A stretch of DNA of 32,000 nt from [Pasteurella] mairii (GTDB lineage: Bacteria; Pseudomonadota; Gammaproteobacteria; Enterobacterales; Pasteurellaceae). The notes beneath the pieces are model-generated. The model made no database searches. It was not told the origin of the DNA and saw nothing but the letters and a program-made list of their open reading frames with translations. Positions 20,062 to 21,180 of the stretch are shown here, piece after piece. The position numbers and the translations under genes are program-made. The stretch lies in contig UGSS01000002.1 of assembly GCA_900454475.1 (NCBI GenBank), positions 917,605-949,604 on the forward strand, read 5' to 3'. How positions within the stretch are numbered: position 1 is the first letter of the stretch; every line of letters starts with the position of its first letter.

Positions 20062-21180
20062 ATGAGTATGAAAATCGAATTAACTAAAATCAAAATCCGT
20101 GATTTGGTCGCTGATTATACCAACACCGCCGAAAACGGCGTAACAGGCTATTATGGCAAACTAGACATTCGCCCCAAATATCAGCGTGAATTTGTGTATA
20201 AAGAAGCACAACGTAATGCCGTGATTGATACGGTTCGTAAAGGTTTTCCGCTTAATGTGATGTACTGGGTAAAACGTGAAGATGGCACATTTGAAGTACT
20301 AGATGGTCAGCAACGCACCATTTCTATTTGCCAATTTGTCAAAGGCGATTTTTCGGTTGAATATCAATATTTTCATAATCTCCCCAAGGACAAACAAGAC
20401 GTATTTTTGGATTATGAATTAACCGTTTATCAATGCGAGGGAACGGATAGCGAAAAGCTAGAATGGTTTAAGACGATCAATATTGCAGGCGAAAAACTGA
20501 CCGACCAAGAGTTACGTAATGCAGTTTATGCGGGCAGTTGGCTAACCGATGCTAAACGCTATTTTTCAAAATCAGGCTGTGTAGCATCTAGCCTAGGCGA
20601 TAAATACGTCAAAGGTTCGCCTATTCGCCAAGAGTTATTGCAAACAGCATTAGAATGGATTTACTGCACCGAAAATAACACTGAAAATAAGCCACATAAA
20701 AGCATTGAAAGCTATATGGCATTGCATCAACACGATGAGCACGCCACGAAATTATGGAATTATTTTCAGTCAGTGATTAACTGGGTAAAAAATACATTTC
20801 CAACTTATCGCAAAGAGATGAAAGGCTTGGAATGGGGATTGTTTTATAATCAATTCAAAGACGCTGATTTAAACCCAACCGCACTTGAAACGGAAATCAA
20901 AACCTTAATGGAAGATGATGAAGTCAGTAAAAAAGCTGGAGTTTATGCTTATGTGCTAACACGAGATGAACGTCATTTAAATTTACGCACCTTTAGCGAT
21001 AAAGATAAACGAATTTTATTTGAACGACAAAATGGCGTTTGCTCACATTGCAAAGCACCCTTTGAGCTATCTCAAATGGAAGCAGACCATATCACACCTT
21101 GGTCGCAAGGCGGTAAAACGGATTTGAGCAATGGGCAAATGTTGTGTAAAAGTTGTAATCGTAAGAAAAGTGATCAATAG
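20062..21180 (+). CDS. DUF262 (ParB/Srx-fold, GmrSD N-terminal type) domain fused to a C-terminal HNH nuclease
   Basis: 372 aa. An AAGGA SD lies 4 nt upstream, and the gene starts 12 nt after the MTase stop. DUF262 hallmarks are RPKYQREFVY (aa 37-46) and LDGQQRTISI (DGQQR at 20302..20316). The C-terminal HNH is CSHCKAPFELSQMEADHITPWSQGGKTDLSNGQMLCKSCNRKKSD (CxxC...DH...N...CxxCN). Confidence 0.85.
   Translation: MSMKIELTKIKIRDLVADYTNTAENGVTGYYGKLDIRPKYQREFVYKEAQRNAVIDTVRKGFPLNVMYWVKREDGTFEVLDGQQRTISICQFVKGDFSVEYQYFHNLPKDKQDVFLDYELTVYQCEGTDSEKLEWFKTINIAGEKLTDQELRNAVYAGSWLTDAKRYFSKSGCVASSLGDKYVKGSPIRQELLQTALEWIYCTENNTENKPHKSIESYMALHQHDEHATKLWNYFQSVINWVKNTFPTYRKEMKGLEWGLFYNQFKDADLNPTALETEIKTLMEDDEVSKKAGVYAYVLTRDERHLNLRTFSDKDKRILFERQNGVCSHCKAPFELSQMEADHITPWSQGGKTDLSNGQMLCKSCNRKKSDQ

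Follow-up and report, generated by a model that had tools for sequence, protein, structure and literature searches.

We analysed a stretch of 32,000 nucleotides from [Pasteurella] mairii (contig UGSS01000002.1, positions 917,605 to 949,604 of the forward strand; hereafter the window), in which a gene for an EcoRI-family DNA methylase is directly followed by a gene for a DUF262-HNH nuclease. By computation we observed the anatomy of this cassette, the obligate pairing of its two genes, the reading frames and hairpin of its leader, the polymorphism of its repeat tract, the mosaicism of its methylase and the invariance of its nuclease. There is, in our judgement, about an even chance that the nuclease is a subunit of a two-gene, methylase-first restriction-modification (R-M) cassette with a logic like that of Type III systems. 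More tentatively, the cassettes may form an unrecognised R-M class of at least 8000 protein clusters from bacteria and archaea, in which a gamma methylase with swappable modules guides a nucleotide-switched ParB-fold HNH nuclease, and in which a switch consisting of a repeat in a leader open reading frame (ORF) has been repeatedly acquired in the Neisseriaceae and Pasteurellaceae. In its general kind the R-M cassette is a known one; what is unusual is its architecture and its switch, of which no earlier description was found in the literature.

A methylase and a DUF262-HNH nuclease form an obligate pair

Pfam places GmrSD_N/DUF262 (PF03235, E 2.4e-20) at amino acids 36-156 of the nuclease and HNH (PF01844, E 6e-16), with four zinc cysteines, at amino acids 327-372. 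This confirms the 372-residue DUF262-HNH architecture that an earlier reading, made from the letters alone (the sequence-only reading), had given to 20062..21180. Homologues start at the position of the second ATG (20068). In an alignment of 27 homologues, DGQQR, D342-H343, N357, N366 and the four zinc cysteines are invariant. Pfam did not find DUF1524 in the nuclease, the C-terminal domain being the zinc-HNH PF01844 instead, and neither Pfam nor the fold search detected an SRA, PUA or YTH-like reader of modified bases in it. The PADLOC profile REase_II (PDLC03418) covers the whole nuclease (E 4.3e-145), with weaker matches to NsnA and PD-T4-2_A. Among repeat-bearing cassettes the ratio of nonsynonymous to synonymous substitution rates (dN/dS) of the nuclease is 0.05-0.11 with dS above 1, which is strong purifying selection.

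An AlphaFold (AF2) model of the nuclease (predicted local distance difference test, pLDDT, 80.6; predicted template modelling score, pTM, 0.52) begins with an alpha/beta domain, continues with a helical middle region and ends with the HNH domain. Foldseek returned weak single-domain matches of the N-terminal domain to ParB-CTP, Noc and sulfiredoxin (Srx), and weakly to SspE; the C-terminal domain gave weak single-domain matches to Gme-HNH, McrA and Cap5. A sequence search of solved structures matched the HNH motif alone and no whole-protein relative of the nuclease. The fold hits speak for a ParB/Srx-fold domain of the nucleoside triphosphatase (NTPase) type; they do not show it to be the modification sensor that the sequence-only reading had taken DUF262 to be. 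To judge from its sequence, the conserved DGQQR of this ParB-type domain suggests that the nuclease uses a nucleotide.

The only poorly conserved spot of the nuclease lies at amino acids 201-214 (20662-20703), where there is an insertion of about 10 residues, YCTENNTENKPHKS. It is found in the closest homologues (68-87% identical), its carriers being Pasteurellaceae, one Neisseria sp. and a metagenome-assembled genome (MAG) of one Acinetobacter sp.; most other homologues are without it.

The upstream protein is matched over its full length by PF13651 (EcoRI_methylase, E 1.6e-146, Pfam) and by the PADLOC profile MTase_II (E 1.5e-129). It is 52.8% identical to M.EcoRI, the median within the family being 55.7%. 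Its motifs run in the order X-I-IV, which we take to be that of the gamma class. Translation was assigned to ATG 19078, and the TTG at 19039 called by the ORF finder was rejected as the start. Neither single-sequence nor profile searches found a relative of the methylase among solved structures.

A protein search with the nuclease gave at least 8000 clusters; among the matches listed, identity was 62-87% and the hosts were Pasteurellaceae, Neisseria, Vibrio, bacteria of the candidate phyla radiation (CPR) and Elusimicrobia. An exhaustive search returned 494 clusters (at the 50% identity level) at E <= 1e-30, nearly all of 360-410 amino acids. One genome per species was then scanned with the nuclease, yielding 80 loci of 57-66% identity, hosts of which include Saccharibacteria, Gracilibacteria, Bacteroidales, Firmicutes, Actinobacteria, Campylobacterota and Pacearchaeota. 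A PF13651 methylase lies upstream on the same strand in 77/80 of them, and the other three are without upstream DNA. The short DUF262-HNH homologues thus have an EcoRI-family methylase directly before them in all 77 assessable neighbourhoods, and the pairing with a methylase that the sequence-only reading had pointed out is a property of the family. In 67 loci the methylase match ends less than 400 nt from the nuclease start, and in most the stop of the first ORF overlaps or almost touches the start of the second. Plasmids, one E. coli chromosome and a few phage records carry the pair as well. The nuclease is kept at every locus surveyed, taxa without a repeat tract included. The cassette therefore behaves as an R-M unit, since such faithful retention of a methylase would not be expected of a Type IV enzyme that works alone.

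Genes of the Fic/DOC(-HTH), Bro-N, ORF6N, RhuM, HEPN and T5orf172 types stand between methylase and nuclease in some loci. Passengers between or beside the pair were seen in L012, L022, L027, L032, L043, L046, L048, L052 and L079 (loci are cited by number). Genes of these types are typical passengers of R-M operons, as in Type I R-M.

At one locus (L096:5001-7067), in an organism that reads TGA as Trp (code 4), DUF262-HNH is joined in a single 688-residue ORF to a domain resembling EcoRI methylases, in which motifs I and IV are degenerate (FPSF for NPPF). No other methylase lies nearby. The fusion lends slight support to methylase and nuclease being a physical unit. A second apparent fusion looks like a frameshift artefact. 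A frameshifted methylase beside an intact nuclease was found in two MAG loci only (L048, L056), in neither case at a repeat, and these may be assembly errors. Apparent stops in both genes of Gracilibacteria and Peribacteria loci probably reflect an alternative genetic code.

Methylase segments are shuffled around a constant nuclease

Among the 75 cassettes with both genes complete, the methylase core has a median pairwise identity of 66% and the nuclease one of 62%; the median falls to 16%, 20% and 8% in three methylase segments, V1, V2 and V3 (Table 1). Column conservation is 0.42-0.54 in V1 versus 0.7-0.98 in the core. The identity distributions of V1, V2 and V3 are bimodal, any two cassettes having an allele in common or not. 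The 75 cassettes fall into 17 classes of V2, 44 of V3 and 61 combinations, and identity in V2 and V3 is uncorrelated with that of the core (Spearman 0.09 and 0.18). The closest relatives of the window copy, in Pasteurellaceae and Neisseria, have 83-91% identity in the core and 80-84% in the nuclease, yet identity drops to 14-24% in V2 and to 7-22% in V3. Glaesserella parasuis departs from this in having the V2 of the window (97%) with a different V3. The same V2 allele recurs in Neisseria perflava, Paludibacteraceae, Sulfurovum, Fibrobacter and Eggerthellaceae. Nuclease identity is unimodal with no mosaic segment, and the effect upon it of a common V2 is negligible (coefficient 0.01).

By analogy, V2 and V3, and perhaps V1, would behave as specificity modules. 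Since the nuclease stays constant while the methylase would change its target, the nuclease itself should be unable to read that target. Divergence of the nuclease in step with methylase specificity, the expectation for an orthodox Type II system, was not found, in so far as V2 and V3 set that specificity. Two methylases with EcoRI-type nuclease partners, M.EcoRI of E. coli and that of Leuconostoc, share 74% of V2 and 87% of V3 against 71% of the core, whereas the window methylase shares 29% of V2 and 13% of V3 with M.EcoRI.

GAATTC was considered as the target. The sequence-only reading was correct in stating that this site is not avoided: there are 11 copies in the window versus 13.5 expected from shuffles, and over 1.15 Mb of host loci the observed/expected ratio is 0.76 (rank 22/64), no more than general palindrome avoidance and hence uninformative. 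No specific avoidance of GAATTC or related palindromes was found in the host loci. As the site of this methylase, GAATTC did not hold up. Because V2 and V3 differ from those of M.EcoRI it is probably not the target, and for that reason its count says little.

A repeat tract in a leader ORF as a probable switch

Before the methylase lies a (CGAAA)n tract, in keeping with the suggestion of the sequence-only reading that the methylase is possibly switchable. The tract is located in a separate leader ORF, outside the methylase ORF (Table 1). The present leader frame stops at TAG 19021, while the third frame is open through a hairpin as far as the TAATG at the methylase start. The overlap of this ON-frame stop with the start codon indicates translational coupling. 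The window copy is thus predicted from its sequence to be in an OFF frame, which the gain of one unit or the loss of two should turn ON. The hairpin is two-tiered, with a folding energy of -20.9 kcal/mol (z -3.9), and 0/200 shuffles fold as stably. No terminator-like T-run follows it, and an Rfam search of the leader region matched no known RNA family.

Table 1. Coordinates of the cassette features and of associated elements, numbered from the first letter of the window.
Feature	Position	Strand	Remarks
Leader ORF Shine-Dalgarno (SD), GAGG	18892-18895	+	read from sequence
Leader ORF ATG	18901-18903	+	read from sequence
Leader ORF in present frame	18901..19023	+	40 codons, MRNETK..., stop TAG 19021-19023
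Repeat (CGAAA)x23.4	18904..19020	+	100% perfect; Tandem Repeats Finder (TRF) score 234
Double stop block	19021..19028	+	TAG 19021-19023 and TAA 19026-19028; closes two of three frames
RNA hairpin	19038..19085	+	CUUGCCUGUCA pairs with SD region, G of AUG and codons 2-3 of methylase
TAA of third (ON) leader frame	19076..19078	+	overlaps methylase ATG (TAATG)
EcoRI-family N6-adenine DNA methylase gene	19078..20049	+	323 aa, PF13651
Methylase variable segment V1	19303..19401	+	aa 76-108
Methylase motif IV NPPF	19468-19479	+	
Methylase variable segment V2	19609..19716	+	aa 178-213; candidate target-recognition module
Methylase variable segment V3	19927..20013	+	aa 284-312; candidate target-recognition module
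Nuclease SD, AAGGA	20053-20057	+	starts 4 nt after methylase TGA 20047-20049
Nuclease gene, DUF262 (ParB/Srx-fold)-HNH	20062..21180	+	372 aa ORF
Nuclease DGQQR	20302-20316	+	
Hin-type uptake signal sequence (USS) ACCGCACTT	20878..20886	-	AAGTGCGGT on minus strand; inside nuclease gene
Nuclease HNH domain	21040-21177	+	
Nuclease catalytic D342-H343	21085-21090	+	invariant in alignment
Perfect 11-bp inverted repeat (repeat I17)	21199..21223		bidirectional terminator-like hairpin, between nuclease gene and convergent putP

Six further units were found at this leader position in relatives, making seven different units with the CGAAA of the window. They are GCAAC in Pasteurellaceae bacterium Pebbles2 (L082, x9) and in Rodentibacter rarus (L084, where the contig begins inside the tract), AGCA in G. 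parasuis (L083, at least 11), ACGC in Pasteurellaceae bacterium Macca (L088, x23), TCGT in Neisseria sp. (L089 and L090, x6 and x7), CAGC in N. perflava (L001, x19) and GCAAGTTC in Alysiella (L008, x5). An SD and ATG directly precede the tract in every repeat-bearing relative, and by script count the distance from tract end to methylase ATG is 56-65 nt. All seven loci that were frame-checked have the leader SD and ATG, two early-stop frames and a third frame ending at or near the methylase ATG. The TAGnnTAA double-stop pattern is conserved among relatives. The outer 7-bp stem of the hairpin is retained in 7/9 sequences in a consensus fold, and RNA folding for N. perflava gives a stem equivalent to it although the sequence differs. 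In Nicoletella, where the repeat is missing, a leader of 24 codons is in the long (ON) frame and likewise ends at the methylase start. The frame logic, hairpin and TAATG overlap are thus kept across the relatives checked, the ON and OFF states being those predicted from sequence.

The tracts vary in length between isolates, as in phase-variable methylases. (TCGT)6 is in an OFF frame and (TCGT)7 in the ON frame, in two samples with an identical nuclease. Eleven contigs of the N. perflava group, which have an identical nuclease at one common chromosomal site, carry (CAGC)n with n = 5, 5, 5, 7, 7, 7, 7, 9, 14, 14 and 19, of which n = 9 only is in the ON frame. OFF frames were therefore found in 10/11 of these contigs, and in 5/8 other loci. 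OFF-frame copies with an intact nuclease under purifying selection are common in nature, and the OFF state is therefore evidently not lethal. The tension raised by the sequence-only reading, in which methylase OFF would expose the host chromosome if the nuclease cut unmethylated DNA in the Type II manner, is a genuine question, but such harm is not borne out by these copies.

Outside the mucosal families, repeat tracts were seen in or just after the methylase gene at L080:9580-9600 (Fibrobacter intestinalis, G10), L062:9765 (a Eubacterium MAG, (AG)12) and L037:9152 (Adlercreutzia, G9), possibly as independent switches.

A proposed mechanism

In the reading that we prefer, V2, V3 and perhaps V1 of the methylase would act as exchangeable recognition modules that set the target sequence, and the methylase would mark host DNA with N6-methyladenine (m6A). 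The nuclease would be sequence-agnostic: its ParB/Srx-fold domain, with an intact DGQQR, would bind or hydrolyse a nucleotide as a switch, and its zinc-HNH domain would cut DNA that the partner methylase recognises as unmodified and nothing else. With the leader in the ON frame, ribosomes would traverse the hairpin that hides the methylase SD and AUG and terminate at TAATG, leading to coupled initiation. In the other two frames they would stop just past the repeat and the hairpin would stay shut. The nuclease gene follows closely behind in the operon, and coupling or polarity may lower its expression as well. The OFF state would then be one of neither methylation nor restriction, and would be free of self-cleavage because the nuclease depends on the methylase. 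Switching the methylase off appears to be tolerated, and the simplest account would be that the nuclease cannot act without it. We infer this dependence, as we do the nucleotide gating, the direction of self/non-self discrimination and the ON and OFF expression levels.

A number of points weigh against this reading. PADLOC assigns the nuclease to Type II and not Type III, and no homology links either protein to the Mod or Res of Type III. The nuclease may be made when the methylase is OFF, since its SD is a good one and the RNA around it is unstructured. V segments are linked to specificity by analogy alone, and the hypervariable segments could be surface loops that diversify for other reasons, e.g. 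escape from phage inhibitors. Of true methylase-nuclease fusions just one was found, with a degenerate motif in its methylase part. The consensus fold of the leader gave the outer 7-bp stem alone, with zero double compensatory changes, and a plus-strand (sense) promoter for the operon was not located. Moreover, the conserved block after the repeat (TAGnnTAAA ... CTGTCAAG) also fits a strong minus-strand sigma-70 promoter: at 19022-19049 there is a TTGACA, a 16-nt spacing and a TAAACT (10/12 matches), pointing into the repeat, and by eye most relatives have the element too. Either it is a genuine antisense promoter, or it may simply result from the double stop together with the anti-AUG stem. 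Finally, a literature search found no study or biochemistry of this gene pair or of the short DUF262-HNH family, and no experiment on either.

Alternative explanations

An orthodox Type II system, in which DUF262-HNH by itself recognises a fixed unmethylated site, the methylase protects that site and the V segments have no part in specificity, is in our view unlikely. The full-length PADLOC matches of adjacent genes to REase_II and MTase_II are what such a system would give, as is a methylase whose identity to M.EcoRI is near the family median. The order of methylase then nuclease and the overlap of their stop and start are in line with co-expression. The host would escape autoimmunity in the OFF state only if the nuclease were co-silenced, through coupling or through Rho polarity on the untranslated methylase message, or if the OFF state were leaky. 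However, the nuclease does not co-vary with the discrete methylase alleles, and its initiation region in the window is unstructured RNA (0 kcal/mol), open and with an SD of its own, as the sequence-only reading had noted. Post-segregational killing should follow whenever a classical Type II system switches from ON to OFF. Despite this expectation, repeat tracts have arisen on at least seven occasions and most of the frames are OFF. The lack of specific avoidance of GAATTC or related palindromes in the host loci also tells against an orthodox Type II system.

It is rather improbable that the nuclease is a reader of modifications, either as a Type IV cutter of foreign modified DNA (hydroxymethylcytosine, glucosylated hydroxymethylcytosine or foreign methylation) that ignores the m6A of its partner, or in a manner like SspE, where the host mark made by the partner licenses or restrains a sequence-agnostic nuclease. 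Its N-terminal domain is indeed Pfam GmrSD_N, the fold hits include ParB-CTP and, weakly, SspE, and the weaker PADLOC matches are NsnA and PD-T4-2_A. An invariant nuclease beside a methylase of variable specificity would suit a generic reader of m6A, and SspE is, in the excerpt of its published description, a DUF262 nuclease tied to a host modification module. Type IV enzymes, however, need no cognate methylase, and here one is present at every assessable locus, mostly with overlapping genes. The C-terminal domain is a classic zinc-HNH rather than DUF1524, and domains of the SRA, PUA or YTH-like kind went undetected. If loss of the mark unleashed the nuclease, frequent OFF states would be harmful, yet OFF copies with an intact nuclease are common.

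Least probable is a phasevarion or selfish addiction module, in which methylase alleles reprogramme expression and the nuclease stabilises or spreads the cassette without serving defence: several alleles and repeat-driven ON/OFF switching do mirror the modA/modM phasevarions, and the bare, species-specific positions between housekeeping genes, with host-type uptake sequences and no integrase or flanking repeats, would suit it, but the purifying selection on the nuclease and its retention at every locus, repeat-less taxa included, do not, and the phasevarion idea is in any case compatible with restriction and concerns biological role more than mechanism.

Comparison with known systems

The sequence-only reading had offered a choice between a Type II-like and a GmrSD-like enzyme. 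This overlooks the pattern of Type III Mod/Res, namely shuffled methylase modules with an invariant nuclease, in which turning the methylase off does no harm. Like Type III systems (Mod/Res, e.g. EcoP15I) the cassette has two genes with the methylase first, exchangeable, allele-like recognition segments in the methylase beside a conserved nuclease partner (a likeness of pattern only), and a nuclease partner that joins an NTPase-type domain to a nuclease domain. In the excerpt of PMC1557822, Type III mod alleles vary and res is conserved. Unlike Type III, the methylase is of the EcoRI family and not a Mod, and its partner is ParB/Srx-fold plus HNH where Res is a superfamily 2 (SF2) helicase plus PD-(D/E)XK; Pfam matched GmrSD_N and HNH alone in the nuclease, and PF13651 in the methylase. 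Repeat-driven ON/OFF switching in the same host families is shared with the modA/modM phasevarions of Haemophilus, Neisseria and Moraxella. In contrast to Type III phasevarions, the repeat of the cassette is in a leader ORF and not in the methylase ORF. As in Type III, the nuclease would presumably depend on the methylase.

With GmrSD, BrxU and SspE the nuclease has in common an N-terminal DUF262 ParB/Srx-fold domain with DGQQR, a C-terminal His-Me finger nuclease and a defence role; with SspE, also work alongside a host DNA modification module. It differs in being much shorter (about 360-372 amino acids), with a zinc-HNH PF01844 and not DUF1524. Unlike the GmrSD family it is always paired with an EcoRI-family methylase, and no evidence of modification-dependent cutting was found for it. 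The likeness to the EcoRI system lies in the methylase, a homologue of M.EcoRI over the full length of PF13651. The nuclease is unrelated to R.EcoRI, and the gene order is reversed, R.EcoRI being upstream of M.EcoRI; the low V2 and V3 identities make the GAATTC target of that system unlikely here.

Leader switches have precedents. The excerpt of PMC3894217 describes, for pil1 of Streptococcus gallolyticus, a repeat in a leader peptide and an attenuation-like switch. There, as far as that excerpt goes, a tract in the leader ORF sets how far ribosomes travel and hence a downstream RNA block, as proposed for the cassette; unlike in that account, it is the SD and AUG that the structure in the cassette hides, and the stop of the ON frame coincides in part with the start codon. 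Btr192II of Bibersteinia trehalosi, described as a classical Type III system, has (CGCAA)14-17 at 43 bp upstream of the mod ATG, in a tract of strain-variable length whose mechanism its authors left open (PMC4996451). It resembles the cassette in having a Pasteurellaceae host and the same pentanucleotide unit as L082 and L084, tens of bases upstream of the methylase start, and differs in being that classical Type III system. Btr192II was rejected as a member of this family; no Bibersteinia protein is among the close matches listed.

Genomic setting and spread

The cassette is flanked in the window by sbcB on one side and by convergent putP/putA on the other, and the G+C content of the island is 34-38% versus 41-45% in the flanks. 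There are 22 USS in the window against 0.13 expected. The one inside the nuclease gene is real, and L082, from another host with Hin-type USS, has a USS at the homologous nuclease codons; a USS within the gene argues for long residence in the Pasteurellaceae, as the sequence-only reading had held. Copies in L083, L085 and L088 have Apl-type USS, and DNA uptake sequences (DUS) flank the Neisseria copies. At L084:1283 the nuclease gene of R. rarus, a Pasteurellaceae host, contains a Neisseria-type DUS, TTCAGACGGC. The methylase of this Rodentibacter copy clusters with those of Neisseria. Together, the DUS and the clustering indicate transfer between Pasteurellaceae and Neisseria. In each species the cassette is inserted bare between different housekeeping genes, and no integrase or flanking direct or inverted repeats were found around it. 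Natural transformation is the likely vehicle of its spread.

Three other features of the window lie apart from the cassette. At 99-732, Rfam matches group II intron domains D1-D4 and D5/6, with only fragments of an intron-encoded protein between them, one stretch being HNH-like; a group II intron seems to have decayed here at the window edge. On the minus strand at 7649-9538 an AT3-SGNH acyltransferase is divided between neighbouring ORFs, 8960-9538 and 7649-8953. Their junction is without an obvious repeat, and they represent a pseudogene or else a gene in two parts. At 6012-6509 and 6620-6985 there are a small LEA_4-like protein, made up of 33-nt and 54-nt tandem repeats, and directly after it the transfer-messenger RNA (tmRNA) gene, with the tag ANDEQYALAA.

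Implications

If the methylase guides the nuclease, the cassettes would represent a further mechanistic class of R-M system, in which a ParB-type nucleotide switch replaces the helicase motor. They could also provide a compact system of two proteins that is retargeted by exchanging modules of the methylase. At 57-66% identity between the Pasteurellaceae copy and those of CPR bacteria, archaea, Bacteroidota and Firmicutes, the cassette is among the most widely transferred defence cassettes. As a rule for annotation, a repeat outside an annotated gene can still set its ON/OFF frame, and the leader-ORF logic may explain other upstream tracts, e.g. that of Btr192II in Bibersteinia. The phasevarion surveys that we found cover Type I and Type III genes; if our reading is true, multi-allele phasevarions have been missed by surveys limited to these. 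Neisseria, Glaesserella, Rodentibacter and related mucosal bacteria would gain a many-allele family of phase-variable methylases, which matters for gene regulation, for transformation barriers and for choosing vaccine antigens that are stable.

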